DNA of 63,962 nucleotides, counting the filler, from Stramenopiles sp. TOSAG23-2 (Eukaryota), in assembly GCA_900128395.1 (NCBI GenBank). It is 5 parts of 5 records of this genome, joined end to end, with 100 filler letters (N's around TTAATTAATTAA, not from the genome) between each part and the next. Parts side by side here need not be neighbours in the genome. Positions count along the whole stretch, not along the records: positions 1 to 12,750 come from LT649836.1; 4 more parts are not named here. The stretch is one strand, 5' to 3'. The translations under genes were made by a program, and so were the position numbers. Below, in pieces: positions 1,088 through 51,273 of this stretch. The first letter of the stretch is position 1. Each line of letters starts with the position of its first letter. Below the pieces are notes generated by a model. That model was not told where the DNA came from and searched no databases. It worked only from the letters and a program-made list of their open reading frames with translations.

Positions 1088-2673
1088 GCTGAGGTATGTA
1101 GAGATGTTGCTGTGTCCATGCTAAACCTGGCGAATCATCTCAATTCATACTCTAACAAGTCCTATGATATAAATATTTTCAAGCCTATTACAGCGTAAAA
1201 GTAATAAATGTTAAAAAAAAATATTTTCATGAAGAAACCGGATGTTTGGCTTGGTCTTTTTTTACCTTTTAGCATTTTGGGAATTATCCAAAATTATTAC
1301 AAGCAAGGTTGCCAATGGATACTAGAATATCCATGTCATAGTATGGAAATAGCATTGTGAGAGTTTACACACACTTTTATTGTGCAATTGCAATATATAT
1401 ATATATATTTATGCATATGAAAATCTCACTCGTAAATTTATACATAGACGTTTTGTTTTATACCTTTTAAAGTTATATCATTAATATAAAAGTAAATTTA
1501 TTCAAATTTGTGAGAGTTTACACACACTTTTATTGTGCAATTGCAATATATATATATATATTTATGCATATGAAAATCTCACTCGTAAATTTATACATAG
1601 ACGTTTTGTTTTATACCTTTTAAAGTTATATCGTATACCTTGCACCGGTTGTTTCAATTTACAGCTATTCTTAATAGCTGTGAAAAAAGTTAAGCGGTGC
1701 AATATATACGACATAACTTTAGAAACTGCATAGAATAAAAAAATTGTAAATTATCGTTAAAATAAACCAGTCTTATTAGTACCAAAGCAACGTTTACAGT
1801 AGGACCACATGTACTTGTCAGATGTCAACATAGAACAGTAGAAGGATGAGAATCATTACATGATGGAAACATTGTGTCCATTGGGTGTTATTAGAGGAAA
1901 TAGAAAGCGCCTAGAAAAAGAAATAGAATAAAATGCAAAGTTTTGATTTTATAGTTATAATGAATGCCATGTTAATATGCAAAGAATGTGTGTGATATAT
2001 ACACAGGGAACTTTGCACATTTTAAACGTAACATGAACTGGTTGTAAAAATTCAATATCTTTATAAATTTTGGTTTAAATGTCAATTTTATATGCAACTA
2101 TCGACTATTTGATCCAATAAATAACAAAAAACTGAAAATTATAGTCTAGTAATGCATATTTCATTTTAAATTTGGTACATTTACTTCCATTTAGTTGCAT
2201 TTTGGATGTATTATTGCACCTAATTTTAACGAATATTTCTTCTTTTTCATTTTTGTTTCACAATTGTATATATTGTTATGATTGGATGTTTATTTATTGA
2301 GATAATAATGTATTTGATGTTGATTGTGTTTTAAAAATATGTTTAGATAATATAATTATCAATTTTATAATATATTATAAATATCTTTGTATTTAATATT
2401 TTCATTTAAAATAATATCTTTTTCCATTTGATGTATCAATTTCATCAAAATACTTCTATAACTTGTGCAATTCTAACATAAATTTGCATCATTTATTTAG
2501 TGCCGGAGGAAGCAAAAATACACAAATTATAAGGTGAAATGATGAAATATCACATTACGATGTAATAGGCCAATAGGCCTGAAAATATTTATATGATAGG
2601 ACTTGTTAGAGTATGAATTGTGATGGTTCGCCAAATTTAGCATGGACACAGCAGGATCTCTACATACCTCAGC
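1088..2673. mobile_element. Candidate non-autonomous DNA transposon remnant bounded by 102-bp inverted repeats
   Basis: 1088-1189 matches the reverse complement of 2572-2673 at 94/102 positions by manual alignment. No intact ORF inside; no target-site duplication found. Confidence 0.5.
1355..1632. repeat. Two identical 125-bp direct repeats with a 28-bp spacer
   Basis: 1355-1479 = 1508-1632 (period 153). Confidence 0.9.
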
Positions 2674-2965
2674 AGACTCTTTCTTTCGAAAGAGTCTGAC
2701 GACGCAGACTAAAATCTGCACATCTGATGGATATCTGGAAATCTGGAAATCTAAACCGCGTGCGAAAGTCCGTGTAGCCGATGCTCTGTCCATGCTATAT
2801 TTTATTACCTTAAAACAAAATCATTAGAACAAGTCTTCTGTTAATGTGTGTACTTGTGTAAAGTCTATTTAGGGTAAGGTATAGTATACATCAATGATGA
2901 TGATGGGCGGCAATTTTTTTTGTGGAGTTTTTTTGTTTATTCAATTTAAATTTTTATATAAATAG

Positions 2966-3213
2966 AATAAATAAGTTTAATGGAAAGATGGGAGAGGGTG
3001 GATATATCATTTCATAAATCATAAGTATATTTCATTGATTGATTGGACGTGTGTTTATTTCATTTATTCATTTTGTGTGTGTGTGAGAAATAAATAAGTT
3101 TAATGGAAAGATGGGAGAGGGTGGATATATCATTTCATAAATCATAAGTATATTTCATTGATTGATTGGACGTGTGTTTATTTCATTTATTCATTTTGTG
3201 TGTGTGTGAGAAA
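2966..3213. repeat. Perfect 123-bp tandem duplication (probable assembly artefact)
   Basis: 2966-3088 repeated at 3089-3211. Confidence 0.9.
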
Positions 3214-3395
3214 GAATCGTTTCCTTATTGTGTGAAATATATATATATTTGGTATAGCAATCTTTTATTTTTATTATTATTATTATTTTCAAAAGGATTA
3301 TTATAATAATTATCAATATATATTTGGTTTTAAATAAAGAATATATATATATACAACGTATCAACTTATAATATACATATACATATAAATAAACA

Positions 3396-4334
3396 ATGTA
3401 TAAAAAACGTGCAGGAAAACCGAATGCGCATGTAGATGCCATTTATAGTGTAGATTGGACGCCATATGGAGATATTATTACTGGTTCATTAGATGAAACA
3501 GTACGTATATGGAATCATACACATACATTAGGGGATGATGATTCTGGTGGTCATGGTAAAGATACACTTGTAGAGAAAAAATGTTTTGAAGGTCATGAAC
3601 TTGGTGTAGTTTCAGCAAAAGTGCATAAAGATGGAAAAATATTAGCAGCAAGTAGTTTGGATAGTCATATACGTTTATATGATATGGAAACTGGTAATTT
3701 AAGTCAATCATTAGATGCTGGCCCAATTGAATCTTGGTCCATTTCATTTCATCCAACGGAACATTATTTAGCAACTGGTGGTTTTGAAGGAAAAGTAAAT
3801 ATATGGGATTGTGAAAAAGCACAAGTTACAAATACATTAACAGTAGATAATGGAACATTTGCATTAAGTGTACAATATGCACCATCTGGTAATAAACTTG
3901 GTGTTGGTTGTCAAAGTGGCACCGTAGCAATTTTTGATACATCTGCAAAGGAACATGGTAAAGTATTGCAAAAATATGATGATTTAAAAAAATCAGTACG
4001 TTGTGTTGAATTTGATAAAGAAGGTTCATTATTATTTGCTGCATGTGATGATTGTAATATTAATATGTATGATGTACGTAAAGCAAAACCAATTGCAACA
4101 TTAACAAGTCATACGGCATGGGTGTTAAGTGTTGCATCTAGTCCAGATGGTAAACATTTTGCAAGTAGTTCCACTGATAAAACGGTGAAAATATGGGATA
4201 TTGGATTGAGAAAATATATTCATTCATTTGAAAATCATAGTGATCAAGTCTGGGATATTGCATATGCTAGTGATGGTAGACATTTAGTATCTGTTGGGGA
4301 AGATTCTGCATTGAATTTGTATGAGGTGTTGTGA
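3396..4334 (+). CDS. WDR61: WD40-repeat protein WDR61/SKI8 (SKI and PAF1 complex subunit)
   Basis: 312 aa of WD40 repeats. AHVDAIYSVDW, ITGSLDETVRIW, EGHELGVVS, AASSLDSHIRLYD, DAGPIESW, HTAWVLSVA and HSDQVW are colinear with WDR61. Confidence 0.92.
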   Translation: MYKKRAGKPNAHVDAIYSVDWTPYGDIITGSLDETVRIWNHTHTLGDDDSGGHGKDTLVEKKCFEGHELGVVSAKVHKDGKILAASSLDSHIRLYDMETGNLSQSLDAGPIESWSISFHPTEHYLATGGFEGKVNIWDCEKAQVTNTLTVDNGTFALSVQYAPSGNKLGVGCQSGTVAIFDTSAKEHGKVLQKYDDLKKSVRCVEFDKEGSLLFAACDDCNINMYDVRKAKPIATLTSHTAWVLSVASSPDGKHFASSSTDKTVKIWDIGLRKYIHSFENHSDQVWDIAYASDGRHLVSVGEDSALNLYEVL

Positions 4335-4668: not shown

Positions 4669-5851
4669 ATGCTCTCTGTCCAATGTACCAAGTATGATGA
4701 ATCTCCTTTAAATGCGGTAAAAGTTAATACCGTGCCGAGAATCAATATTAAAACGCCAAGACCAGACAACATCATTGTACAAACATATGTATGTCCACTT
4801 GATTTTGTACAATTATTGTTAATCCAACGTAAATACCAAGTACGGGCCGAACCGCCTTTTGCTCTCGGCGCTGAAACTATTGGAAGAATAGTAGCAATTG
4901 GGAATAATGTTGATCCAACCAGATATAAAATTGGTCAAATGGTAAATGCTGGACCAACTGATGCAGATGGAAATGCATGGTCTAATTACGGAGGATTTAG
5001 CGAATATGTCGAGTGTGAAGGAAGATCAGCTATTATTTACCCTGATGATATGGATCCATGTTTATTTCCAAGTCCATATGGCTACTATACAGGAATGCAT
5101 GCGTTGGAAGACCGTGCACAAATAAAAAAAGGAGAAACTTTGCTAATTTTAGGAGCTAGTGGAGGTGTAGGTGTCGCTGCAATTGAATTAGGAAAGTTAT
5201 ACGGTGTCACAGTCATCGCTGCTGCATCGTCAGATGAAAAGTTACAAACGTGCAAGAAGTTAGGTGCTGATTATTTAATTAATTATGAAAAAGAAAATTT
5301 AAAAACGAGATGTAGGGAAATTACAAATGGTAAAGGTGTTGATGTCGTCTATGATCCAGTTGGAGATAAATATGCAGAGCCAGCGGTACGTGCATTGGCA
5401 TGGAAAGGAAGATATGTGACTATTGGATATGCTGGTGGTGATATTCCAAAAATTGCATTGAATCTTTTATTGTTAAAAGAGGCAAGTATATTAGGTTCCA
5501 TGGCTGCTGAATATATTAAACATGAAGAAGATACTGCTTTGGAATTAAGAAGAAAATTTGGAGCATTAGTCCATAAAGGAGATGTATTTAGTGAACCAAA
5601 ACCTATTAGTGTTTACAAAGTAACAGAAGCGGCAAAGGCATTGAATTTATTTAATCAAAGACAGGTTCAAGGAAAGGTAATGCTAGTTATGCCTATTTAT
5701 GAGGAAGAGTATGGGTTTGTAAACAGAAGCGGCAAAGGCATTGAATTTATTTAATCAAAGACAGGTTCAAGGAAAGGTAATGCTAGTTATGCCTATTTAT
5801 GAGGAAGAGTATGGGTTTGTAAATCAAAGGGTTTCCGAAGCGAAATTGTAA
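4669..5851 (+). CDS. NADPH:quinone oxidoreductase (MDR/zeta-crystallin-like family); true C-terminus probably ...GFVNQRVSEAKL
   Basis: PPFALGAE, GGFSEY, LILGASGGVGVAAIELGK and GKGVDVVYDPVG motifs. As assembled the ORF stops at 5754; removing one copy of the 100-bp duplication (5622-5823) restores the frame to TAA at 5849-5851. Confidence 0.88.
5622..5823. repeat. Perfect 100-bp tandem duplication frameshifting the oxidoreductase 3' end
   Basis: 5622-5721 = 5722-5821. Confidence 0.9.
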
Positions 5852-6301
5852 AAAGAGTGGGATTAAATAACAATATTTTACGTATCATATTTCATATCAT
5901 TACTTGTGGTTCGTTTTATATTTTTTTTTACGGCTCGTATATTTTACTTCGTATATTTTAAAAAAATACCAGTATATTCATACCGCATATGTCATACGTA
6001 ATTATTATTTGTGTGACATATCATACGATTCGTAGATAATAGATATATGATACGGCTCGTAATTAACATTGGCTCAAACACTAAGGCATATTATTCTTTT
6101 GAGAGTGTATGATATATGCACGTAGGAATTGTCATTGGTAGAAATAAAAAATCAAAATACGCGTACTTTATTATTCTATCTCCATGTGAGATGCACCTTT
6201 TCGTATTACGCTTCTTCGTACGAAGGAGTTGTTGTTGAAGTGAGAGGTTTTTAAATATAAATTATACGACTTCGTACATATCATATCATATTTGTCACTT
6301 C

Positions 6302-9300
6302 TCACACCGCACGACTAGATCCATTTGTAGTTGGTGGTTTCATAAGCGTCTTCAAATTGCTACCATCTCTTTGGCGAGTTTTTTTACCATATTTGTAAGC
6401 AGCAGTTTCAGCTTCCATTTTTTTTGCTTCTTGTGCAGCGTTTTCATCATCTGTCTTATATGAGAACGTGAAAGTACATCGTGTCTCCCCAATCCTTCTC
6501 CGTCGTTGTCTTTCCCATTTAAAGTTCTTTGGATTATCACGTTCCAACAGCTCCCAGTCCACATCTTCATATTTTGGTTGCCATAACCAACGAAGGGTAC
6601 TGTTATGATGAAACACATTACTAACATTCGATTTGGGAATTTCTGGTTCCCGAAGTATTTCGCTATTTGTATCCCACCTTTTGTCCAAGTTAAAGTCAGC
6701 TTGGGAATAAAGGAAAGGCTCCCCATCTTTATTAAAAAACGTCGATTTGTTGTAACACATGAGACAAACTTGGTAACCGGTTTGAAAGTGAACATAGCAT
6801 GGATCTTTATCCCACTTTGATAAACATATATATTGCTCATTGTGGCAATTGTCATGCTCATCCACTGATTCAAATTCAGCTTTTCTATTTTTCTTTTTTT
6901 GTGTTCTCGTCTGGGGTGCTTCCTCCAATTCAGCAAGTTCCTCTCTCAACATAATCATTAAGGCCTCTAAGCTATCAACGTCCTCTTTTCCAAACATAGC
7001 GACCAATAATGCTACAACATCATTTGGACTTTTGAAACCTTTACTAGTATAAACCTTTTCGTCTTTTATCTTCCAATCATTAGTATTTATGTTGCTAAGA
7101 CCGGTTGACAATGTATCACGTATAATTTTTAAGTTTGCATTGTCTCGATGCGCTAAAAATTTTGCTTGTATCTTTCCAACATTGAATACAACTTGGCATT
7201 TTAAATGGGCATTATATTTGAATTTGATAAAACCTATAATTTGGTATATACTCATTTTTTTCTGTAAATCTAATTTCTCATCTTTTGTTGATATCGATTG
7301 TTTCAATATGTTTTTATTGCCATCTTTATCAACATCTGCCATTTCAGTAATAAATCTGTCACCGTCTTTCACATTTGTAATAGTAATGTTGCTATTCCCT
7401 CCACTTCGATCCATGATTTTTCTACCCGCATCAGTCAATGTCTTTCCTGGAGTATTTATTTCCAATTTAACTAGATTCGTATGATTGCTGTTGCTTGTTG
7501 AAGCATACATACGTTTTACTTCACTTCCCCTGACTACCGCGGGTAGTACAGACATCGCACTACATTTAGTACACATTGGGAAGCCTATTTTTTGAAACCA
7601 AGCTTCACTTGGCGCCGTTAATCCAAAATTATTAGTTTTGACATAAGTTACAACCCAAATACGTTTTTCCATTTTGATATCAAAGTGTTCTCCTATCGTT
7701 AATTTTAACGTAGTCCTTTTCATTTTGAAAAGTTTGTCGCATATGCGATCATTTTCTGGATAAACCAATTCATAAGTGAATTTCTTTGGCAATTTTTGAT
7801 ACATAATTTCACCGCTAACGGCTTTTATCCGCATCTCGTTTGCTTTAGTTTTATTTGCCTCCCATTCTTTTTTACTAGCATCCTTCATAGTGCATACCAT
7901 GACATTAACTTCTTCTTTTACATACGAAACGTCATCACTCATACCTAACTGTTTCCAATTTTGGTAATCTGTATTTGTGCCAAGTAAAAACCTTGCATGA
8001 CAAGTACTTCGCTTTTTTCTTTCATTTTCTCTACAAAAGGATTTTCCAGTATTTTTCAACATATTATTTAATGATTTATATGTAGGATTAAATACTGGGA
8101 ACATTGACCTAGAAGTTTCTTCATTTTGACAAGCGGCTCGATAACAATATACACCACAAAGCTTTATCATTGGCTCGAGTTTCAAAGCATTTTTGTTCAT
8201 CATTGGCGAACATTTCGATAATGCGGCTTTCTTTTTGACAGACGTATGAGCATCCTTCATTTCGTTATGTTTATCGCGGACTGCGTTTTTTTTTCTTGTC
8301 TCTTCTCTTTTTTTTCGCCTTTCCTCTTTCTTTTCTTCTTCTTCCATTCTTCTTCTCTCTGCAGCTTCTTCTTTTGCAATTTTTCTTTCTTCTGCAGCTT
8401 TTTCTTTTGCAATTTTTCTTTCTTCTGCAGCTTTTTCCTTTGTAATTTTCCTTGTTGCCTCTTTTTTTTCGCTTCTTACTTTTTTCGATCTTCTTCTTGT
8501 TAATGCATTATTACTTTCGCCAAATTTTGGTGCATTAAAACCACCAGAAATAACAGACAAAGGTCGTTTTCTATCAGTTTTTTCTTTCTTATGCATGTTT
8601 TTCTTCGTAGTATTGGTGATATGATCTTGGGCAGTTGAGCGTCTTGTGTTGATGCTACCTTGTATCGTTGTGGTAGTTGTAGTAGTTGTGACAGTAATAT
8701 CTTGCTGGTTATCATCTACATCCAGATTCTCCGATGATATAAATGAAACTTGGTCTTCTTCGCCACCAGGTTCTTTATTATTATCACTACTACTAATCTT
8801 TTTATCTTTACTTTCCTCTGAACTATAGTCTACATCAACTTCCATATCACCCGATGACACATATGAACTTTCATCTTCGTTATTTGGGCGATCGTTATGA
8901 TCATCATCGCTATTTTTTTCATTTTTTCCAAAAGCACTCTCATTTCCTGATATCTCATCTATGTCCATATAACTAATCTTGTTTGTGTCCAATCTTTCGT
9001 TCATTTCTGCATTGCGCTCCCTTCCAACTTGTTCTTGCGCATGTTGGATTGTTGTATTTTTTTTGTGATGTTCTGAATTATACTCATTGTCATCATTGCC
9101 ATCAAAATCAGTTTCAGACAAATCAGCATCCATATCACCTGATACCACATCTGACATTTGATCTTCTTCTTCTTCTTCAGCGTGTGAATACCGATTTTCT
9201 TCATCTTCACTAGAACTGTCATCATCTTCAGTATAATCGCCATCTTCATCTGTTTGCTCATCCTCAGAAATAACAATTGGATCGAAAAAAATATTATCAA

Positions 9301-12300
9301 ATCCATCATCTGCTACTTTCCCCAAATCAAATGCACCTATATCACCGTAAATCTTAGCGAAAGACATTGTAAATGTTGTAGTTGGGGAACCTGTGTTTTC
9401 TTGTTCAGCTAAAAAGCGTTGAATGGCATCTTCATTTACATTGGCATACTTTGGATCATTTAAAAACTGTCTTAAAATTTCAAGTGTTGCTTTTCGAAAT
9501 CGTCCACGTAATTGTGGTATTCTATGTGTGCCTCCTAGTTTTGCATTTTTGCTAATTGAGCCTTGAAAGAATATCCTCCTTACAAGTTCAGAATGGAATC
9601 CAGCCCCAAGCTTGTCTATGATGAAAATAATATCGATTTCTCCAGCTTGTGCTAGACGAATAAATTCGTCATCACCCTGCACGCGTTTAGTATCTCCATT
9701 TGGCATGTAAATTAAAAGAGCTTCATCACTAGTATGTTTGGCATAACTCAATCCATTTCTCCCCATATATTCTTTTAAATTGTCTATACATGTATCGATA
9801 TATGACTTATTACTTAGTCGTATCAGCGATTGAAATGGTAAGCCGCCATATTCATTGCGTAATTTAATTAATTCATGAATTTCACCTTTAACATTATTTG
9901 TTAAGTTGTCCAAATTTAATAAGGTTACTTTCTCTTTAGGCCCATCGCCGACTTTTCTATAGTTTTCCAGTTCAACAACGGTTGTCTCTGGCACTATTTT
10001 CATATTCACCAATTCACTACGTGTTACTTCATGTATTATTTGCCGGTCTATATAATCACCATTATTTAATTTGTATCTTCTTTTACACGTTGCTGTGAAT
10101 TCATATCTTATTTTGGCCCCATGGAGCTCTGCGGCTATGATGCGATTAACTGGTATAGCCTTACTGTTCCATTCCTCTGCATTTACAGTTGTAAATCCAT
10201 GATTACCTGCATGCATATCATCCATGCAAACCATTCCGTATTCTTGACCAATAAAGCACGGTCCAAAAGTGTGTGCATTATTTTCATCATCATCATTATT
10301 TTCGCAATGGAAGCATTTTTTTCGTTTGTTGCAATCTTTATGGGGGCAGAATGTGCAAGCAAAAATTGCATTTTCATTCTCTCCTTTCGAACTCCTTTGG
10401 ATATAAAATGTATTTATAATGTCAATCATAGGACATTTACTTAGAAACATTTCTGTGGTGCAAACATCTTTTCCGTCGTCATAAAATGTTGGCTCATGAC
10501 CCTTTTGATTTATATATCTCGAAAATTTATATACCAAGTAATATGTAGACACTTTCGCATATGTTTGGTCATTCATATTTTTTGTAAATCCACCATCAAA
10601 TGAATTTGTATCAGTTTGATCTTTGCAAAATTCAGGATAAAAATTGTCATTATAATCAACAACTTCACGCGAATCATTAACTTTTACCCAAAAGTTCCGT
10701 TTTAATCCTGGTACCAATTTTATCAAAAGTTTTGCTTCCTTGTGTAAATATGTACACTGATCTATATCTTCATCGGTTAATGCACAACCACTTTCAAGAT
10801 CTAATAAACATTTCATTTGTTGTTGTGAAAGAAAATGTTCATCTACAGCTTGATTATCTGAAAAGATATCTTTTTCATTTCTGGACGATGGGTCATTTAC
10901 ATCACACAATGGGTCCTTATATCCACGAAAAGCAAATCCCATTTGTGATAATCCTGATCCAGGCGATGTAATTAAACTCCTTGTAGATTCCCAATTTGGA
11001 GAATTACTATTAAGAGTAGATTTATCGAAAACATCCCCAATCCATGCTGATGGAAATAACGGAATTACACACTCTTGGATGCTCTTCCCTGATGATGTTG
11101 CATGCTTAATTACAGGAGAATTTGGAATTTCTAAGTGCTGTCCATGCCAGCCATCTAGTTTTTGTTGTCGAATATTTTCAAAGTCAATTTGTTTGACATT
11201 GCCATTTGCATCTGTGTATGTTTGCGTTATATGGCTTGCAAATACGGCCTTTTGATACGAGCGTATTAAATTCGTTGCTAATGGAAAGGTGCTAGCATTT
11301 CCTGCATTATTACCTGGTGCTAAGCTTTCCAAGATCAAATGTTTTGATGTATCACTATCATTATTTCCAACACGAAATATCTCAGTCTTTAATTCCTCGT
11401 AAAAAGAGCAAAGCTTTTGCATTTTTCTTTTTCTTTCTGCAGAATAAAAATTGGTAAAACTTCTGCTTGCATCATCAATATCATTGTATATAATGCTTTC
11501 TGTAGATCCTTTGTCGTATTCAGGCGAATTTTGTATGCGACGATACATACCACCTGAAATATAACCACAAACTTGGAGAGTGTTTTCCATCGTAATATTA
11601 TGATCTAGTAACGTATGTTTGTCTTCTAATTGTTTACCAGCATAGAGTAATCGTTGTTTATTTGGTGGTATACCTTGCTTGTCCTGAATCTTTTCCTTGA
11701 CTTTGTGAATTGTACAATTTGGATTGACGTCAAGCGTCATGGTGTTACCCTCCCAATCTTTCACAAAAATGGGCATTGATTCAGACTGTTGAACTTTTCT
11801 TTTATGAACGTCTGTTTGGTTTTCCTCCAATTTCTCAAATACATCAAATACATCAATAGGCCAAACATTCTCTAATTGCATATCGGATATTTTGTTTTGA
11901 ACGTCCGAATCTATTTGACTTAGTGTATCTAAAACTTCCATATCAGAATCCATCTTTGGTACCGATACCTCCAAGATATCTTTGTTATTTGTATTAGTTT
12001 CCGTGTTTTTATTTTTTTTGGTAAAATTAACATAAAAAACAAAAAGTTTGTCCAATGCATTTACCAAAGGCAACGAACGGCGTCTACACCACCATCTACT
12101 ACATCTACGGAAACATTTTAAACTAGCTTCTTCTAAAGCTATAATTCCGGCTATTCTTTTGGCAGCACGTCTTTTGTTACGTCTAATACGTTTGTTTTGT
12201 CTACGTCTTTTGTTACGCTTACGACGTTTGTTTTGTTTACGTCTTTTCCTTGCTTTATTTATTAATTGACAGCAAACAATAGCCAAATTATCGGCATGTT

Positions 12301-12376
12301 CTTCTTCGCCATCTTCAAATCCAAACTTTACGTCAGGATTGTAATCGTCTGCGAAACCGTTCAAGTTTGGTTTCAC
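6302..12376 (-). CDS. Ubiquitin-fused divergent SF2 (restriction Res/HsdR-like) helicase with acidic and coiled-coil linker and possible AP2-like C-terminus
   Basis: 2024-codon ORF. 76-aa Ub-like unit at 11776-11549 ([10 protein letters not shown]...[18 protein letters not shown]...ISGG). Then HATSSGKS (motif I), VCMDDMH (II), FTATCKR (III), [13 protein letters not shown] (V), QLRGRFR (VI). Start codon uncertain: the ORF opens on GTG and the first ATG is ~140 codons in. Confidence 0.7.
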
Positions 12377-12750
12377 ATCTACATAATTATGCGATTGTAA
12401 TTTACGTCGGTTTTGTGTCGTACACGTTCAATATCATGTTGTTCAATATATATGTATATATAGTGTTTTGTTGCAAAGGTATGTTTAGTTGTTGTTAGTT
12501 TTTAGTTTAAGTTACTATATTATTTTTTTATTCTATTATTATGGGCGTATTTTACTATATAATATATATAAATATATATAGTATAAAAGTAGCCTATCAA
12601 AAAGTATACCATTCGTGATTTGCAATTTCAACTCATGCGAACATGCGAACATACTATCCTCTTAACGTGATTTCTAAATAGACTTATATAAGCCTATTTG
12701 TAGCAGGTAAATAGCATTAAAAAAATAAAAGTTATAAATTTTATAAAATT

Positions 12751-12850
12751 NNNNNNNNNNNNNNNNNNNNNNNNNNNNNNNNNNNNNNNNNNNNTTAATT
12801 AATTAANNNNNNNNNNNNNNNNNNNNNNNNNNNNNNNNNNNNNNNNNNNN
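12751..12850. other. Artificial contig linker
   Basis: 44 N + TTAATTAATTAA (stops in all six frames) + 44 N. Confidence 0.98.
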
Positions 12851-12935
12851 TTGTATTTTCTAAAGCCTTTATTTTTTTTTCATTATTATTTTCTTCGACT
12901 TTTTCGTTATTCATATCTGTTACAATTGTCGTCAT
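12851..12935 (-). CDS. 5' fragment of a hypothetical protein cut by the contig edge (MTTIVTDMNNEKVEENNNEKKNKGFRKY...)
   Basis: ATG at 12935 in an A-rich context like other genes here; frame stays open to the N-run. Confidence 0.5.
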
Positions 12936-13575
12936 TATTTAAAATAAACTTTTTTTTAAAATTTTTTGTTTTTGATATAATGTATATATACACACAAAGG
13001 TAAAGAGAGAGAGAGATAGAGGATATATATAGGAGTGGGAAAAAAACAAATATATATATAGGGAGGAGGAGGAGAGTTGATCTATCTCTTCTCTCCTTTG
13101 TTTACGTATTACCTATATATCGTCTCTGTGTGGTGAACAGGTATATCTTTATGGACTTTAACTTGGTAAAATCCGAAATCCGAACCTTAATAATATTATA
13201 CCAAAATATCACAAATTAAAATACAACCAAGATGTACCTATCAAATATTTAATTTTTAATTTTTAATTTTTAATTTTCCGCATGTAATTTATTTTTTACT
13301 CCTATATATAGGCTATCTCCTGCCGAGCGTCGTGTGTTCCGAATAAGTCTATCTATACTTCGTATATAGTAGTATATAGTAGTATATATTAATATAAGTA
13401 TTTAAATCATTTTTGATTTGAGACGTTAATGTCCGGGAGTAAAAGAAATTTATATACGTAATATATATGAGTAAGAGAAAATTTTTATATAAGTACGCGT
13501 ATTTTAATTTTTATTTCCACTCGCGTGATAATTCCAAAAGAGAGTAGTTTACTTCTACACACACAATTTATAAAC

Positions 13576-16500
13576 TTATACGAACCGGTTCGTACTTTTT
13601 TTTTCAGCTGGTGCGATTTTCGAGGGAGCAATTTTCGAACCAGATTTAGGCATTTTCCCCGGCTTTTTCATACCTTTTACGACAGCTAGGAGAGTAAATA
13701 AAACACCGAAGATGATAACAAAAACAATTACTGTTGAAAACATTAACCAAATTGATAAGGCAATGTCTTGAGATGCGTTCCCTATCCCCTTTTCTCGTTC
13801 ATACGTTCGATGAGTAATCATTAAACCGGTAATTAATGTGCAAAATAATTGCACACTTGTAAAATATTGTAAAACTTGATCTTTTTTACTGGTTAATGGC
13901 TCTAAATACGAGGCAAGTAATACGTAAAAGAAACAAATTACAATTCCAGCAAAAATTTGCATTCCGCTTGTTCCAAGCATGACCAATGCACCAACTAGGG
14001 AAATTTTCCTTATCATCTCTACTAGTTCAAACCAATAATATTTGCGCTTATAATCTTTATACATGGAACCAAATTCAGTGCGACATTTCATCACTTCTTG
14101 ATGATCATCTGGATGAACAGATTTGCCTTCTTCATCTGGATCCTTTGCAATAATCTTTCTTTTCATATATAAAATCGTTATATACAAAGTTGGTATACCA
14201 CACACATAAAGAACCATGAAAATCCATGCAAATGCTCTCATGGTGATATATTTAGGATCTGATTCTTTGACCGACAAATCTGAACTCATATACCGTGCTC
14301 CTTCTTCACACTCTTCGGTATACTTTTTATGATCTGGAATAGTTGGGTCATTTGGATCCACATCATCTCTCAATTTTGGGTCAAAACAGGAAAGCGCAAA
14401 GACTCTAAAAATTCTTAATCCAATACCAGGGTACATTAAAAAGACAACTAAATTTCCCATTTTTAAAACTCGTGCATACAATGTTTTATGGTCATAATGT
14501 GGTTTACACAGTTTACAGCACATAAGCTTTTTGTAAACAACAGCGGTTAACCACGATGCTAAAATCACACCGATCAACATTGGCAGCATCGCCATGTGCA
14601 TATAAAATGCCTCAGTATACGACGTGTCCACAACACAGCCCATGTCTTTAAAAAAGCTGAAGAGATCTATATTGAATGGTGCATACATTGCGGTCATTAA
14701 GGCATCAAACTCCAGAGGCCATTTAATTTTGAATGTCAAATTAAAGGACGATAGGATTTGCCCCCAACCGAATATGATTTTAACTGTAGGTGCGATATTT
14801 TTAAGGCCATCTAAGTTTAGGGAGATTGTTGTTGTCGGTGCTTTTGGCGCAGCGGTTGAAGAGTCTACATCTACTGTATGAGTTTCACCACCGTCAATTT
14901 CTGTTTCAGTCGTTTCTGTTTCATTCCTGTCCACCCCGTCCGTCCCGTCACCAACTCCTGTCCCATCAGTTTCATCGACGGCTGCTGCCGTTTGATCACC
15001 ATCTACATGAGCTGCCTCACGCCTTTCCACGCGTTCTGCTATGCGTTCTTGATTTTCCGCTACCCCTTGATGCATTTGAGCGTTTAAATTCAACTCTCCA
15101 ATCACACGAGCATGGTTACTTCGTTGCTGTTTAACCTTTTCATCCTTTTCTTTCGCATTTGCTGCTTTAACAATAGCTTTAATCTCCTTGCCAAGGACTT
15201 CAGGGGCTGTTTTCGGCTTAGCGACCCGTAAGTGGGTATAGTCCCACATTTTTAAAAAAAGTTTTTCACGTATTTCCCCATTTTCATCTATGTCAAATGC
15301 TTCAAAAATAGCTTCTAACTCGCTCTCATGTATTTGTTCTTCGGTGTAATTTGCATAATTCCGCACTGCATGTTTGTACTCCTTTACGTCGACACTACCA
15401 CTGTCATCTTCGTCCAGCATTTGAAAGATCATCCCAGAACGTGTCAAGCTATATAATGAAAAACCATAGAACGCAGACACTAGAAAAAACCCCAGAAGCG
15501 TTGTCAAGGCATCGTAATCCACGACATTTTTTAAATCTTCGCATCTTGCACAATATGTTCTTCCTTCCATCTCGGGATGCGGCTGTTCTAAATATTGACC
15601 GAATGGCCCGCATCTATTACACAGTGGCCCAATCCTCCCTTCTGCACATTGGCTCCCCTCAAACTCTCCTCGCATATTCGCCGTCATATTTGATGTCTCA
15701 TTGGACGTTGCTAATCCCCTATTTTCTGTTAATCTCCTATTATCATCTACTTTTTCACCCATGTTATTATCATCTACTTTTCCACCCATGCATTGTGTTG
15801 ATGTAGAAGGATCCATTCCAGGAAAATCTACATCTGCACATTTATAATATTTCACTGTTCCAGGACGCGCACGATAGAAACCCCGCAAGGCAATCAAATC
15901 CTTTATTGTTTGACCAGGTTCTGAACAATCAACTGCAACATCTGTACCGACTTTAGGGCATTCTCTGCAACGTAAATTATCAGGCTTATTTGGGTCTAGT
16001 TCTGTTGTGTAAGACTTATTGTAGGATATACGAGCATCGTAATAATTTTTTGCACAGCTGCAAACGGTGCTTGACTTAGCCCCTAATTCCACGCCATCGC
16101 TGTTTGAAATGACATTACTACATAACAAGCACGAAGTCTGTTCTTTTAAATGTTGGTATCTTCCGGCTTCACAAGACGTACATTTTAAAGCAAGTCTTCC
16201 GCCATCAACAGATGTTCCAACACTATATTTTCCTGGTGAGCAAATCTTACATTCAGTTATTTTCTTACCATTGCCATCAACATCAGAATCTAATGTACTG
16301 GAGTCTTGATATCGACCTGGTTCACAAGGTATGCAACGGCCAGGCATTCTCCCTTGATGGTAACCAGCAGGGCATTTGGTAGTAGATTTTGCGCTAATTG
16401 TACATAAATTAGTAGTTTTTGTTCCTTCCAAGTATAGACCATCGTTGCAAGTGTACGAACCATCCTTGTGAGTTCTACACTTCGTTGTTTCCCCTAGGTG

Positions 16501-19500
16501 TAACGAACACGTAGAATCAGGATTTTCAGTGCTGCAGCAAGCAGCATCACAATTTGACTCGAAATTTGACACATGTCTCCATGATGCCACGTTGTCATCT
16601 AATTCGGTATTTCCGTTAACATCATCAAATTCTTTCGCTTTTCCAGCAAAGTTATCTCCAAATGTAGTTCGTTTAATTGTTGCCTTGAAGAGTTTACTAT
16701 CGCATACTAGTTCCTCACATTTGTAATCTCCATTATGAACCCCCTTATCTAGCTTAATAGCACCACCGTTGCCTTGAACGGCTCCATTTCCCTGAAATGT
16801 GGAATCATCAACAAAGAACTTAATAACTGAATTTTTTGCAACTGTTCTGCCACCAAGCAGATTGATTGCACCGCCACTTTTCCACGCATAATTGTTTGTA
16901 AAGCTTGAAGTGCTAGATATTGAAACATCTACTGAACCATGCGATCCAAATGCACGACGTATACTTGCAACTTTGTCCAACGCTCCCGTTTCTAAAACTC
17001 GCTTGTACCTAATGCCTGTACCGATCGAGATTGCACCACCATAACCACCTGTTAAAGTGTCGAAAGTATTTACTGGACCTCGCGTTACCGACATTGCCAA
17101 GTTATTTTCAAATTTGCAGTTGTTACATTCAAATCTTGTACTCAGTGGCAAACCGGCAGACAAAAGATCTATTCTTTCTTCGTAATTTGAATCATCTGCA
17201 TACACATCCAAATCTGGATCGACGATTACACGGCCCTGTTGTGGACTTTCAATGAATATGGCCCCACCATTTCCTGTTACTCGGTTGTTTCTGAAGGTAC
17301 AATTGTTACAAGAAAACAATTTACCGGAGAAGAAAATTGCGCCTCCATGCCGTTTTCCTATTGGCCCAGTCAACGATTCTACCAATCTTTGCGGCCTCTC
17401 ACAAAATTTGGCAAAAGCAGAATATGCTGGTCCAAGATTAGCTGCGTTGTCTAAACTTAAGCTTGGATCCAACAAGATTCTCTCTAATTTTGATGATACA
17501 AGTACAGAACGAATAGGGCTATTTTCAACATGTTCGATTAACATTGGATTAAAATCAACATCATCAGAGATACCAGAATTGCTAAGTTCAACATTATCAA
17601 TTTTCAACTGTGCATCTTTGTTGAATATTTTAATTAAACGCATGTTATAATTGCCCATATATTGTGTATTAATATCGTTTCTTGTCACTCCATCCTCTGT
17701 TCTACTTGGAGTGATGGATGGCATTTCAAATCTTGGAGGTGAAACGATCATATCAGCGGGCGCAAGTAAAGGTTTAATTGTATTGTTGTAATGGCCAGCA
17801 GCACTTAAGATAATATTTTTGAATGATGAAAGAACCCCAAAACTTTTTGGTACGAGCTCCCCAGCTTGATACGGTGCCATAACTGCATCTTCTAGAATAT
17901 AATAGTCATATTCATCTTCCTCTCCTATTTTTTTAAGCTTTAGCATGGTAACCCTCTCTCCAATCCACATACATTCCATCCCAGGCTGAGTTGGATCGCA
18001 TATAGGTATTAAATCACTTTCATCACCATGTTGAAACAATTGTCCAACTTTTACATTGTTTCTTGCACAGCTGTGCGTTGGAAGTTTTACCACCAATTCA
18101 GATCCAGACAATGCTGCCGATGCACCGGTAGGAAATTTTACTTCCCCTGATTCAGTTGCTGTGTAAGTTACATAATCTGATTCTGGAAGATCCAATGATA
18201 AATCATCGGAACCTCCGTGGCAATAGAAGGTGCAAGGCACATTCCCATCATCACAATACGCCCTGTCTACACGAACATTGGAATTTGTTAAAGGGTTTGT
18301 ATTTTGAACATTCACGTGGATGCAAGAAGAAGCACCTTGATCATTTCCAATTTCGACTGAACCAACACCGACTACACTGCCATCCTCAAGCCTCCATTGT
18401 TCAATATTACTAGTACCAGGTACAATATTAAAATTAATTAACGGTTCCTCAAGGTTGTCTGGCATCATTGGCCCCATGTCTATATCGATGATTTTTCTCA
18501 ATGCAGAATAGCATATAACTTTTTTCACCGGTTCAAAAGCATAATCTGAAAATTGACCGGTATGCGCAGGATCGACGTATTTTACAGACAACTTATTGGC
18601 ATCGATAACCGTTACAGGCACTTCAACGTCTTTAATGGCATCCTTCTTTGGGATTTCAATGGTAACCATATTTCCAGTAGTTTGACGATGTGGTCCAGGA
18701 AATGTTAAAGTCAGTTCACCATTATTGTATTCTATGTTTTGTATTTGTTGTAACACTGGCGAGCGACTAATTACTTCCAGTGTGTTTTTTAAGTAGAACG
18801 GACCGGCATCTGCATGTAACTGTATCTCAAGCGTAGTTGCACGCTGGTTTACACCACCGACAGAGAGTACACCCGCAGTATTATCTACGCTAAAAGCACG
18901 CTGTAAAGCGCTGCCTGGACTGCAAAATTTATTTACAATATTCTTATCTAATACAATTTTTGCGACAGTCCCAGACTTCTTAAATGCAGCACCTTCCCAG
19001 CAATCATCACAACATCCACCTGTTGGTAGCCCATTATCATCTACCTCTTGGTTAGGGTTCAACCAATTACATTCTCCAACTAAAACACTTTCTGGTGCAT
19101 CTGATGTCGCATTTATTTGATACGATAAAAGCAAACGTCCATTCAGTTGCACTAGAAAAACACTGTCCTCGCAAGATCTTAAATGCACTGGCATCGTAGA
19201 AGGTGTTTTCCAATACAAGCCATCATTCAAACGGGGTATAGGTTGCCCATTTTTAAGTGCATTTCGAGTTGTTTGAAAATACAAAATATTTTCAGTACCC
19301 AACCTTTCAACAATTAAGTCTCTGTTTAAAACAGGACTATCGACGGTTGCTGCAGTACCGTAATGACGGGTTTTCACGCCCAAAGCAGTAGTTGGATTAT
19401 TAAATTTAATTCCACGGAGATTGCTCGAAAAAGTATCTGCGAATTTTGAAACGATAATTTCATATTGCACACTGGTCATATTCAGCCATGTACCCGAACT

Positions 19501-22500
19501 CCAACCCATACGTTTGACATGTACTATAATTGTTTTTTCCAATTCATTTGCTTCAAATTCAATTGTAGCCGAACGATTTCCATTAAAAATTTTAAACTCA
19601 TTACCATCCACAACTGCTGACGTCTCAATTGCTTTAAAATTACTTCTTGCGTATATAGTGAAGCTGCTCAATGTCCCTGCAGATACATAGTATGGACCCA
19701 TGAAATTTGGTGTAAAGTTGGGCCACATTTGCAAACCATGGTTATCATTTACATTTGCCGCCACCGCAGCTAACGAAAGCAATCTCGGTTGTGTGCACAG
19801 CGGTTGATGAAGACGTGTCAACTTTCCTTCTATCGTCCCATCCGCAGTTCGTTCACACCTTAAACCTTGCATTGGCAGAGTTCCTTTATCTGGAGCGTAG
19901 CAACTACCTGTTCCATTGTTCTTTAAGTCAGCGAAGCTTGGACCATTGGCATTCTTTTTGCATACAGCCCCACCAAAACATGTACTTTGCACTATCGCAT
20001 TTGTCGTTGTAATATTTGTTGAGGGATTCGTAGTGGTTACATTATAAGATACTATCGTGGTCTTTAATGCCGCGTTGTACTCACAGCTAAGTTTCTTTGC
20101 AGACCCACCAAATTCTAGATTTTTCTCCTCAATCAGCGTTACATTTACCTTCGATTCGTTGTATGGCAAATATTGAATCCAACTAGTCGATTTGCAAGAT
20201 TTTGATGGACAATCACTATTCCGTTCACATGTTGGATAATTTGGATTGTCTGCTTCTTTTAAATTTTCAAACGAAGTACAATCATTCGACGTGATCTGCG
20301 AAGACGTATCTTGCAACATATTAATCAAACCTTTTGGTAAACATCCAGCATCTTGGCATTTTGTCGTATCTGTACTTATGCAAGCACTACCAGTAGTGGA
20401 TGCTTTCGAACCATAAGTCATTGAAAAGATAGGTGACATTGCCATTCGTACTTCTTTCATTGGCCCCATATTCCATATACTAAGTTGAACATCTGGGAGT
20501 ATTGATTGATAGGAACAAGCAACAACTTTCAAAGTGCTTTTTACACCGCTGTTCCCAGTCTTGATTGGAAATTTGTATTTATATCCATAAACGGTACCAC
20601 CGTCCGTATCCGTTTTAATTTGCGTTCCAACTCTACACTTAATTTCACTTTTTTTTTGATGTGGCATTTCCATCGACATCATCATTGGCTCGTGCCTATG
20701 TCTCCAAATGTCACACACCGGGTTGATCACCGTGTCATATTCTCCTGTACCATGAGTGTAGCACAGTGTAACAGGCGATTCTTCATAGGGATAGTCCCCT
20801 TTGACGCCAGGCTGATAATTGGTTTCGTTACAATACTGATCACCTGTAAAAAGACGGGTTACATCAAATCCCTGCGATATCATTGAAAAATCACAACATT
20901 TAAAATAGTTGAAATCTGCAGGCTCGAATACTTGGGCATTATCTTCTCTAAAAATTGGTGGATGAATCCCCGCATTCCTATCAAATCTTGGACAGGTTAG
21001 AGTGCTACCAGTTCCTCCCCAATTATTTGGACTTATTAATTTTCGAGCGTGATAAAATTCGCCTATTCTATCTTCAGTTATTGTAAGTTTAATGGAATTT
21101 AATGTGTTTGGCGGCATCCATGTCACAGTTTCACTTCTACCATTCACATTTGTAGAATCAATATTTACTTCGTTCTCAAATTCACCCGTAATTCGTAAAG
21201 CATTCATGATGTATGGTATTCGAATTTGATTAGCCATCCAATTATCCTCCCATTGTACCTCAGTCTGGAGCGTTTGCCAATTATCTTGATGTCCAGGTAG
21301 CTTGCGACCACGATTTAGGACTGCTTGTCCCTCCTTATCCGCATTTAGCAACCGGCGACGATATGGCATTCCACCCCTTGGCCCCTGCATATTGTTATCA
21401 TCATTCAGTGGCTGAAACGCACTGCATCGAACATTGCCGCATTTTACGCCATCACTCTCGGTTGGGGTACATACGTGGTTCAAAGGACATCCCTCACTAG
21501 AACCTATGCTTGTACAATCTGTTGCACCAACATTTAGCGCCTCAAAACATTCGGTTTGCGTATTGTAGATTTTTCCAGTAAATTTATCAACTATTGGTCC
21601 ACGATCTCTTTTCGCATTATAAGGGTCATTACCCTCATTAAATATGTTGTAGCTTACGTGCATTTTCTTTAAGCGTCCAGCTTCTACAATTTTCGAGCCC
21701 AACACTGTATTGGCATTACTGCAGAGCCCTGGTAAGTTGCCACCATCTAAAGTCCAATCACAGCTTCCGTGGCAACAATCTGAATCGCCGTAGCAACCAT
21801 GTAATTCATGGGTACAGTTCCATACTTGACAAGTACCAGCTCCAGAAGATAACGTGACCGGCACGCCGTCCATTGGAATTCCTTCGCAAAACATTTGTCT
21901 CCCAGTTATAATATCTACCCCACACGCTTCGTTTTGGCCACATTTGTCACCTAGCCCACATGCACCATTAGCATTTACTTGATCGCATGCAACGACACAT
22001 TCGTGGTCGTCCGTGCATTTCCCACCATCGAAACAATCATCCTTTTCGAGGCATCGGTCACCTGGTCCACAATAGCCTTGTTTTGTCAAGCATTTCTTTT
22101 CATTTTCGTCGAAAAAGCAACCATTTGCTTCACATGAACTTCTTCCTTTCGTACCACACTGTAGTTGGTCTAGAGTAGCACCTAAGGTACATTGGCATTT
22201 ATTTGAAGTACAGTTTTTAGAAATACACTCCGCGTTCCCTTCTGCTGGGGTCATGTCAATTCCACATTCTTCACCGTTCCCATACAGTACAATTTCTTTC
22301 TTACAAATGTTAATATTTAAACGCTCGTCAAATTCACATAGATAACCTTCGCAACATTTTCCAAATTCAAACTCCATCATACCGTGTAACATCGCTATAC
22401 CACATCGTTCACCTTCAGCAGGACACTTAAGTGAGCAGGGTTTGTCAGTGTCACCGGCAGAATCATAGTTGCAAGAATAAAATGCGTCGCATTCAGCCTT

Positions 22501-25566: not shown

Positions 25567-25666
25567 NNNNNNNNNNNNNNNNNNNNNNNNNNNNNNNNNN
25601 NNNNNNNNNNTTAATTAATTAANNNNNNNNNNNNNNNNNNNNNNNNNNNNNNNNNNNNNNNNNNNN
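25567..25666. other. Artificial contig linker
   Basis: 44 N + TTAATTAATTAA + 44 N. Confidence 0.98.
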
Positions 25667-38372: not shown

Positions 38373-38472
38373 NNNNNNNNNNNNNNNNNNNNNNNNNNNN
38401 NNNNNNNNNNNNNNNNTTAATTAATTAANNNNNNNNNNNNNNNNNNNNNNNNNNNNNNNNNNNNNNNNNNNN
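38373..38472. other. Artificial contig linker
   Basis: 44 N + TTAATTAATTAA + 44 N. Confidence 0.98.
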
Positions 38473-51173: not shown

Positions 51174-51273
51174 NNNNNNNNNNNNNNNNNNNNNNNNNNN
51201 NNNNNNNNNNNNNNNNNTTAATTAATTAANNNNNNNNNNNNNNNNNNNNNNNNNNNNNNNNNNNNNNNNNNNN
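51174..51273. other. Artificial contig linker
   Basis: 44 N + TTAATTAATTAA + 44 N. Confidence 0.98.

Follow-up and report, generated by a model that had tools for sequence, protein, structure and literature searches.

The locus described here raises the question of whether a cellular gene may encode a helicase that is made behind a ubiquitin-like unit and later released from it. It lies in a 63,962-nucleotide stretch of DNA from Stramenopiles sp. TOSAG23-2 (assembly GCA_900128395.1; the whole stretch is called the window below), in which one long open frame on the minus strand joins a 76-residue ubiquitin-like unit ending in Gly-Gly directly to a large helicase-like region. The reading that we prefer, to which we assign a probability of about one half and which rests on sequence comparison, is that this is a resident gene for a precursor that a deubiquitinase would cut, releasing an orphan ATPase of superfamily 2 (SF2) with a DDxH form of motif II. 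A preliminary description of the locus had proposed a ubiquitin unit fused to a helicase resembling the restriction (R) subunits of type I and III systems, in a polyprotein perhaps of mobile or viral origin. The fusion itself was upheld by our analysis, and the origin and the family assignment were not.

A diverged ubiquitin-like unit is fused in frame to a helicase-like region

The gene is a single open frame of 2024 codons on the minus strand (6302..12376), along which residues are numbered in this text. The parts of the frame on which the argument depends are the following; P0002 is a homologue presented in the next section.

6302..12427, minus strand: whole open frame, stop to stop, with the stop codon at 6302-6304; colinear with P0002 from the ubiquitin-like unit to residue ~1830
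11549..11776, minus strand: ubiquitin-like unit, residues 201-276, exactly 76 residues, ending in Gly275-Gly276 (Pfam PF00240 and gapless alignment)
11537..11557, minus strand: junction SGG/MYRR, with the proposed cut after Gly276, followed by Met277-Tyr-Arg (comparison of P0002, P0003 and P0006)
9317..11548, minus strand: conserved helicase-like region, residues 277-1020, 42% identical to P0002 (E 7.3e-165)

The stretch 11776-11549 had been reported to encode exactly 76 residues ending in ISGG with Met next, and this was confirmed in every detail. Residues 203-269 matched PF00240 (ubiquitin) with an E value of 9.6e-22 (77 bits as compared to a cut-off of 25.4), and Rad60-SLD and two sub-threshold ubiquitin-like models also matched the unit, so that four Pfam families were found at E <= 0.1. 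Ubiquitin is the only family type that Pfam detects in the whole 2024-codon frame. A sequence search of the PDB with the whole protein gave 386 distinct chains at E <= 0.01, and among the matches listed all 60 were ubiquitin-type chains aligned with residues ~195-288.

Positions 1-76 of the unit align with positions 1-76 of ubiquitin (PDB chains) with no gap and 44 of the 76 residues identical (58%, hand count). Ubiquitin is nearly invariant across eukaryotes. The replacements concern in particular the tail, where the alignment confirmed the earlier remark that GYISGG differs from the canonical end (Arg72 to Tyr, Leu73 to Ile, Arg74 to Ser), but also Lys63 (to Met), Leu8 (to Trp) and Ile44 (to Leu). 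The unit, as judged from these alignments, belongs to the ubiquitin family and is a diverged ubiquitin-like domain, not ubiquitin proper. Calling it a ubiquitin unit was thus correct as regards its length of exactly 76 residues and its Gly-Gly end, and inexact as regards its identity and its position, which is internal and not N-terminal.

The codon immediately after GYISGG encodes Met277 (GG/MYRR; nucleotides 11554-11546). In fusion precursors the residue following Gly-Gly must not be Pro. Gly-Gly at positions 75-76 abutting the partner, with a residue other than Pro next, was found in both full-length proteins known to us (the window's protein, P0001, and P0002) and in the fragment P0014.

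The fusion is conserved in a protein of another eukaryote

When residues 277-1010 were used to search 5.8 billion clustered proteins (4,536 candidates), P0002 was the sole protein found in the length range 1113-3542. This protein of 1870 residues, from a eukaryote protein set, matched with E 7.3e-165, 42% identity and 100% coverage of the query. Its ubiquitin-like unit (Pfam E 4.6e-13) starts with Phe instead of Met after 105 residues, aligns from 2 to 76 with ubiquitin 2-76 (41 identities, hand count) and ends in the canonical RLRGG, directly followed by MFRQ. The conservation of the order ubiquitin-like unit, Gly-Gly, helicase in homologues, on which the preliminary description had made its reading depend, therefore holds in P0002, which has the same layout with RLRGG/M at the junction. 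The recurrence of layout and motifs in a 42%-identical protein of another eukaryote also excludes a chance arrangement.

Conservation between the two proteins begins at the unit and continues across the junction. Identity is 18% in the leaders, which are unrelated, 43% in the unit, 40% in residues 277-425, 45-55% in the helicase segments and 26% in the low-complexity tracts. Both units share four changes with respect to ubiquitin (Glu16 to Asp, Ala28 to Glu, Asp39 to Asn and Phe45 to Tyr), which gives mild support to one old fusion event rather than two captures. Positions 8 and 44 are Trp and Leu in the window's protein and Pro and Gln in P0002.

Shorter relatives are few. An exhaustive phmmer search of 1.84 billion representatives at E <= 0.001 gave eight proteins, all fragments of 128-434 residues, and a homologue search with the family alignment added nothing beyond the already known fragment P0004. 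A search for shorter proteins gave eight matches, of which six were polyubiquitin-type proteins aligned with the unit alone, one (P0014) covered the unit plus 13 residues and one (P0005) matched the helicase part. After the Gly-Gly position, M-[Y/F/W]-R was present in all five covering sequences (P0001, P0002, P0003, P0006 and P0014), and P0003 (MWRQ) and P0006 (MYRC) have as their first residue the very Met that comes after Gly-Gly in the full-length proteins.

The fragment P0014 deserves a separate description. It has 165 residues, comes from a 660-nucleotide contig and is 97% identical to the window's protein over the unit and the 13 residues past Gly-Gly (GG-MYRC); its flanks are unrelated to the window, and tblastn matched residues 19-113 only. 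Possible explanations of P0014 are a paralogous fusion, an exon of a close relative with introns on either side, or a chimeric contig.

The partner carries a complete series of SF2 motifs

The motifs named in the preliminary description were located by script at residues 426-432, 718-722, 760-763, 919-928 and 955-961, i.e. in SF2 order as had been claimed. The elements of the region are listed below.

11243..11269, minus strand: LIRSYQKAV, a Y/H-Q-x-x-A element, upstream of motif I at an unusually long spacing of 47 residues
11081..11101, minus strand: motif I (Walker A), ATSSGKS, residues 426-432; AT[SC]SGKS in P0002, P0003 and P0006
10940..10975, minus strand: motif Ia-like element, 12 residues; LITSP..GL in P0002, P0003 and P0006
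10226..10939, minus strand: family-specific insertion between motifs Ia and II, ~238 residues; residues 481-715 are 50% identical to P0002
10271..10357, minus strand: Cys cluster C674/C677/C682/C688/C691 with His702, just before motif II, a putative zinc knuckle
10211..10225, minus strand: motif II (Walker B) variant MDDMH, residues 718-722, DDxH and not DExH
10088..10099, minus strand: motif III, FTAT, residues 760-763; F[TS]AT in 5/5 covering sequences
9593..9622, minus strand: motif V region, residues 919-928; aligns with the Helicase_C part of P0009
9494..9514, minus strand: motif VI, QLRGRFR, residues 955-961

Motif counts come from a script scan, complemented by reading P0005, P0007 and P0008 by eye. 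The Y/H-Q-x-x-A element is HQKEA in P0002, HQREA in P0003 and YQREA in P0006, and it may correspond to the LRxYQ of ResIII/SNF2-type helicases. Motif I is kept in four of the five covering sequences, and is absent from P0008, a degenerate fragment read by eye. Motifs III ([ST]AT) and VI (QxxGRxxR) stand in the right order and are kept in all covering sequences; for motif VI these are four, with QLHGRFR in P0002, QIPGRLR in P0009 and QLEGRFR in P0005 (the last by eye). In motif V, G-[F/M]-H is found in four of five covering sequences, the differing one being P0007, whose end looks degenerate; His at the place where an acidic residue is usual is a conserved trait of the family.

Between motifs I and II there are 285 residues that include the Cys cluster (674-691), in agreement with the ~290 residues reported earlier. 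The insertion between motifs Ia and II has no family match in Pfam and no match in the PDB. The pattern C-x2-C-x4-C followed by His was present in all five covering sequences (P0001, P0002, P0004, P0009 and P0010); this Cys3-His knuckle may bind zinc. The same five sequences have DD[AM]H in motif II (MDDMH here; P0009 and P0010 are near-identical to each other), and the departure from DExH that had been noticed in the window is therefore a family feature.

One link to known helicases passes through P0009, a protein of 347 residues related to residues 640-975 (phmmer E 1.5e-7 among 1.84 billion proteins). BLASTP between the two gave E 2e-20, with 76 of 332 columns identical, in an alignment that begins at the Cys knuckle, includes motifs II and III and reaches motif VI. 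With the Helicase_C model (PF00271), P0009 scored 39.8 bits as compared to a cut-off of 23.5, over a stretch that aligns with residues ~847-943; on the window's protein itself Helicase_C gave nothing at E <= 1. PHROG 16, annotated as DNA helicase, matched P0009 at 4e-7 and, weakly, the window's protein at E 0.0055. By tblastn, P0009 found 46 archaeal and bacterial virus records, the best of which (E 3e-5) is annotated as a putative helicase. The named language-model neighbours in the ESM Atlas all carry Helicase_C and/or ResIII, with ResIII in 19-94% of their members; their scores of 0.89-0.92 are rated as leads. An hhalign comparison of the family with a lipothrixvirus ResIII/Helicase_C helicase placed motifs IV-V in register, with weak statistics (E 0.011, probability 3.9). 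AlphaFold2 models had a mean predicted local distance difference test (pLDDT) score of 42.4 for residues 277-1020 (8-row alignment) and 41.7 for residues 640-1020 (7-row alignment); alternating strand-helix elements were visible around residues ~850-940 of a low-confidence model. From the motifs and from P0009, the partner is probably an SF2-type nucleoside triphosphatase (NTPase), a statement that we do not extend to a subfamily or to a preference for DNA or RNA.

A proposed precursor cut by a deubiquitinase, and the alternatives

In the mechanism that we propose, the protein would be made as a precursor composed, in this order, of a poorly conserved leader, the ubiquitin-like unit, the Met-aromatic-Arg peptide, the SF2 core, acidic and basic tracts and a C-terminal domain. 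The core has motifs I, Ia, II (DDxH), III, V and VI, and an insertion of ~240 residues, with the Cys3-His knuckle at its end, would interrupt its first RecA-like half. A cellular deubiquitinase would cut after Gly276, removing the leader together with the unit and freeing a helicase-like protein with a Met277-Tyr278 N-terminus that would probably be unacetylated. Removal of the unit could mature the enzyme and also set its lifetime; the released protein would have NTPase activity, and its N-terminus might act as a degron.

A 76-residue unit, Gly-Gly and Met-aromatic-Arg, which both full-length proteins have (one of them with RLRGG), are together the hallmark of a precursor that is processed by a deubiquitinase. 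Since the fusion is conserved with a canonical RLRGG/M in P0002, cleavage by a deubiquitinase is the most economical reading. The term polyprotein, used in the preliminary description, overstates the case: the product would be one large cellular protein of several domains, from which a ubiquitin-like module could be removed.

Several observations weigh against this reading, both for the unit and for its partner. As to the unit, it is not at the extreme N-terminus, since at least 59 residues, and probably ~200, precede it; the frame is open for 158 codons above the first ATG. Recognition by a general deubiquitinase is uncertain because the tail is GYISGG. The unit has diverged at the same pace as the other parts of the protein and is altered at positions 8 and 44, and an internal, fast-evolving unit with these changes fits a permanent, built-in ubiquitin-like domain too. 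The start of P0003 and P0006 at the Met may stem from an intron or from gene calling, and only one full-length homologue was found. As to the partner, the Walker B motif keeps the first Asp and has Asp in place of the catalytic Glu in all covering members. Residues 277-1020 had no match in Pfam (E <= 1), NCBIfam, PADLOC or, by phmmer, the PDB. The family profile matched the PDB once, at E 0.0007, in a low-complexity stretch of an ion channel. Foldseek with both low-confidence models against the PDB gave no match at E <= 0.001 (best E 0.25 and 0.19).

The comparison with restriction subunits is not supported by these searches. The Pfam, NCBIfam, PADLOC and PDB searches gave it no match, ResIII matched neither residues 277-1020 nor P0002 nor P0009 at E <= 1, and the ResIII label derives only from the language-model neighbours with scores of 0.89-0.92; given that no Helicase_C or ResIII profile matches directly and that the catalytic Glu is missing, the protein is not filed under restriction R subunits.

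The alternative that survives best is that the ubiquitin-like unit is a permanent, uncleaved domain, which would serve as a docking surface (e.g. for the proteasome or for ubiquitin-binding partners) or as an intramolecular regulator, with Gly-Gly as a flexible hinge. We regard it as possible, with considerable doubt. It would account for the internal position of the unit behind a leader, for the non-canonical tail and for an identity of 43% between the two species, close to the 40-55% of the helicase part; moreover, many ubiquitin-like domains are described as stable features of their proteins (PMC13572447). However, both full-length proteins keep 76 residues with Gly-Gly at 75-76, and P0002 has the full RLRGG; all sequences have Met next, and this Met is the first residue of two fragmentary relatives. 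Docking through the usual surface is also at odds with positions 8 and 44, which are not conserved.

The cleaved-precursor reading can be carried further, to a version that we consider rather unlikely as a whole. The locus would correspond, in nature, to the 'ubiquitin fusion technique' of the laboratory: a private, fast-evolving module is kept solely for exposing a free, unacetylated Met-aromatic N-terminus. Its removal would activate the helicase and start an N-degron clock, and M-[Y/F/W]-R-x-[I/L] would serve either as the degron or as a binding motif dependent on a free N-terminus. The partner would represent a new SF2 family, with DDxH and a Cys3-His knuckle in the first RecA half, confined to few protist lineages.

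It is still less probable that the helicase-like core is a catalytically dead pseudo-enzyme acting as a scaffold. The features that suggest it are DDxH in all five members, the replacement of Asp by His in motif V and the failure of every helicase model to recognise the protein directly. On the other hand, at ~25-45% identity the relatives still have the GKS of Walker A, motif III and the motif VI arginines, the whole motif set is conserved, which points to nucleotide handling, and Asp is a conservative replacement that could still act as base.

Comparison with known fusions and helicases

A close parallel to a deubiquitinase-cut precursor is SDE2, in which USP5 is described as removing a diverged ubiquitin-like domain at Gly-Gly, thus freeing the active C-terminal part and exposing an N-degron (PMC13572447, PMC5131917). 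Human SDE2 (Sde2 in fission yeast), as described there, resembles the window's protein in having a diverged ubiquitin-like domain that ends in Gly-Gly, in frame ahead of a nuclear, nucleic-acid-related protein. The two differ in the partner, which in SDE2 is a small splicing and replication factor and not a helicase, and in the position of the domain, which in SDE2 is reported at the very N-terminus and exposes Lys; here a leader precedes it and the exposed residues would be Met-Tyr.

Natural ubiquitin fusion proteins offer a second comparison. In ubiquitin-eL40, ubiquitin-eS31, FUBI-eS30 and the protist fusions, one 76-residue unit ending in Gly-Gly is joined directly to the partner, as in our protein. 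The ubiquitin part of the ribosomal fusions is almost invariant, whereas the unit described here shares no more than 58% of its residues with ubiquitin, and 43% between the two species. USP36 is reported to cut FUBI-eS30 (PMC8354635). Protist genomes are described as containing many ubiquitin fusions, in which ubiquitin may be N-terminal, C-terminal or internal (PMC6332867); a helicase partner appears in neither of its two tables, and the word 'helicase' occurs 0 times in that paper.

The NS3 protein of pestiviruses contains an SF2 helicase. Ubiquitin insertions in cytopathogenic pestiviruses, even those with N-terminal extensions, are described as signals for cellular ubiquitin (C-terminal) hydrolases that yield the authentic NS3 N-terminus (PMC8310069). 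The likeness lies in an internal ubiquitin unit preceded by other sequence, and the difference in the history: the pestivirus case is a recent capture of host ubiquitin by an RNA virus, while here we deal with a cellular gene that has host codon usage and an old, diverged unit.

As to the partner, its motifs I, Ia, III, V and VI have the same order and form as in DExH helicases with ResIII and Helicase_C (type III Res, XPB-like and phage proteins), the group to which the language-model neighbours belong and whose Helicase_C model P0009 passes. The protein departs from this group in the lack of a direct profile match, in DDxH and in the 285-residue stretch between motifs I and II with its Cys3-His knuckle. 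It also lacks a methyltransferase partner and a nuclease domain, and carries ~1,000 extra residues.

No description of a fusion between ubiquitin and a helicase was found in the open-access literature searched. Cleavable fusions of ubiquitin or ubiquitin-like domains are already known, and it is the helicase partner that appears to be new. Apart from the two ribosomal-protein genes, ubiquitin fusions are rare, and most of them have not been described; cleavable built-in ubiquitin-like domains such as that of SDE2 have been recognised only recently as maturation switches. If the precursor reading is true, a conserved fusion to a large helicase with an exposed Met-aromatic pair would be a second, independent natural case of SDE2-type control. 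The system is simple to test, as the cut site, the Gly-Gly mutant and the resulting N-terminus can each be specified in advance. The partner itself would be of interest for its 2,000 residues, a helicase core that escapes curated profiles, an altered catalytic motif, a metal-knuckle insertion and the near absence of relatives among billions of database proteins. If no cleavage occurs, what remains is an orphan helicase with a ubiquitin-like domain, of modest interest.

The gene is probably resident in the genome

The window is a composite of five pieces of ~12.7 kb separated by spacers (44 N, TTAATTAATTAA, 44 N) at 12751-12850, 25567-25666, 38373-38472 and 51174-51273, and genes that a spacer separates are not necessarily adjacent in the genome. 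The first piece has the gene at its end and extends for 374 nucleotides above the top of the frame. Its certain neighbours, on the same piece, are an open reading frame (ORF) at 164-634, a WD40-repeat gene at 3396-4334 and a zinc-dehydrogenase-type (alcohol-dehydrogenase-type) gene at 4669-5754.

An origin as a polyprotein of a mobile element or virus, akin to type I/III restriction R subunits and processed by host or dedicated deubiquitinases to free a DNA translocase, had been suggested in the preliminary description. The large, intron-free frame would agree with it, as would the ESM Atlas neighbours, which are mostly phage helicase clusters with Helicase_C/ResIII, and the example of pestiviruses, described as using ubiquitin likewise ahead of the NS3 helicase (PMC8310069). 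For a recent origin, this idea is largely refuted by the data, and we consider it very improbable. The gene is present in one copy in the window, and its codon usage correlates with that of the pooled other genes with r = 0.98 (the other genes range from 0.88 to 0.99), in a comparison that assumes that the five pieces belong to one genome. The neighbouring WD40 and dehydrogenase genes are of eukaryotic type, with no methyltransferase partner. Neither Pfam nor PHROG found a transposase, integrase, polymerase or capsid domain in the protein, which also has no nuclease domain, and ResIII was unmatched at E <= 1. A tblastn search of 50,697 phage records gave no match to the window's protein, and with it as single-protein query no relative was found in prokaryotic genomes among 31 pattern matches. 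The same genomes queried with P0009 gave one match, limited to Helicase_C, in a metagenome-assembled bacterium, which is uninformative. The taxa of the ESM Atlas neighbours are no evidence of transfer. The best explanation of these observations is a resident cellular gene, single-copy in the window.

A 22-nucleotide inverted pair (6147-6168 and 13491-13512, one mismatch) with the palindromic core AGTACGCGTA was considered as a possible pair of element ends and rejected: the arms belong to different pieces, no target duplication is seen in the flanks and the core is palindromic. Both copies stand 64-155 nucleotides beyond the stop codon of a minus-strand gene, and with up to one mismatch the core AGTACGCGTA occurs 8 times in comparison with 1.5 expected. 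The motif could be a 3'-end or regulatory element.

That the fusion is an artefact, i.e. separate ubiquitin and helicase genes joined by an assembly or sequencing error, might be suspected from the composite window with its spacers and from an exact 100-nucleotide tandem duplication nearby, but has a negligible probability, given the same fusion in an independent protein of another species (P0002), the unit followed by GG-MYRC in the 97%-identical fragment P0014 and the distance of 1.2 kb between the junction and the nearest spacer.

The rest of the open frame

The preliminary description dealt with ~760 of the 2024 codons only. The other parts of the frame are as follows.

11954..12427, minus strand: upstream open stretch, 158 codons, including a Lys/Arg-rich tract; start codon not found
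11777..11953, minus strand: acidic leader, 59 codons, from residue 142 to the ubiquitin-like unit
8237..9316, minus strand: acidic Ser/Asp/Glu-rich region and then Lys/Glu/Arg-rich repeat region, residues 1021-1380; low complexity, 26% identity to P0002
6887..8236, minus strand: conserved C-terminal domain, residues 1381-1830; BLASTP with P0002 E 1.1e-32, 26% identity over 453 columns
6305..6886, minus strand: C-terminal tail, 194 residues, with a Cys/His cluster at 6746-6856; no counterpart in P0002

The first in-frame ATG is residue 142 (nucleotides 11953-11951), 59 codons before the unit. The 158 codons above it contain no ATG and no stop, in comparison with 11 and 21 stops in the other two frames, and none of 20,000 shuffled versions of this stretch stayed open. 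It had no Pfam match. From this openness, the stretch is probably coding, and translation probably begins still further up, in an exon or at a start codon not found in the sequence searched. A 36-nucleotide tandem repeat (12167-12238, two copies, 86% identical) encodes the Lys/Arg-rich tract upstream of the first ATG, which, if translated, could be a nuclear localisation signal. The leader and the 105-residue leader of P0002 share 18% of aligned positions, with no BLASTP match better than E 34.

Past the helicase part there are ~1,000 further residues in four segments, namely the acidic tract, the Lys/Glu/Arg-rich repeat, the conserved C-terminal domain and the 194-residue tail. No Pfam match was found for residues 1021-1380. 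The C-terminal domain, 28% identical to P0002 in the region-wise comparison, had no match in Pfam, PHROG, NCBIfam or the PDB (phmmer), and residues 1380-2024 had none in the ESM Atlas; the tail did not match P0002 at E < 1. The best explanation of the whole frame is a multi-domain protein of ~1,900-2,050 residues from an AT-rich, intron-poor eukaryote.

Other features of the window

On the first piece, the exact 100-nucleotide tandem duplication (5622-5821, two copies) overlaps the 3' end of the zinc-dehydrogenase-type ORF 4669-5754, and could be real or an assembly artefact. On the second piece, an ORF at 12851-12934 (minus strand), which starts from the ATG at 12934 (MTTIVTDMNNEK...), continues into the spacer. 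It represents the beginning of a gene truncated where the piece ends, with no relation to the ubiquitin-helicase gene. The same piece contains an intron-free ORF of 3533 codons (13576-24177, minus strand), whose N-terminal half is Cys-rich with internal repeats and whose middle part has GGAI-type repeats, presumably similar to those of chlamydial polymorphic membrane proteins. Its C-terminal part includes an EF-hand pair (residues 2916-2976) and a TRP-channel-like membrane domain (3315-3502). At 55762-61023 (plus strand), a chromatin remodeller of 1753 residues contains a chromodomain, an SNF2 ATPase with Helicase_C and, at its C-terminus, a bromodomain, a combination in one protein that, to our knowledge, seems unusual.

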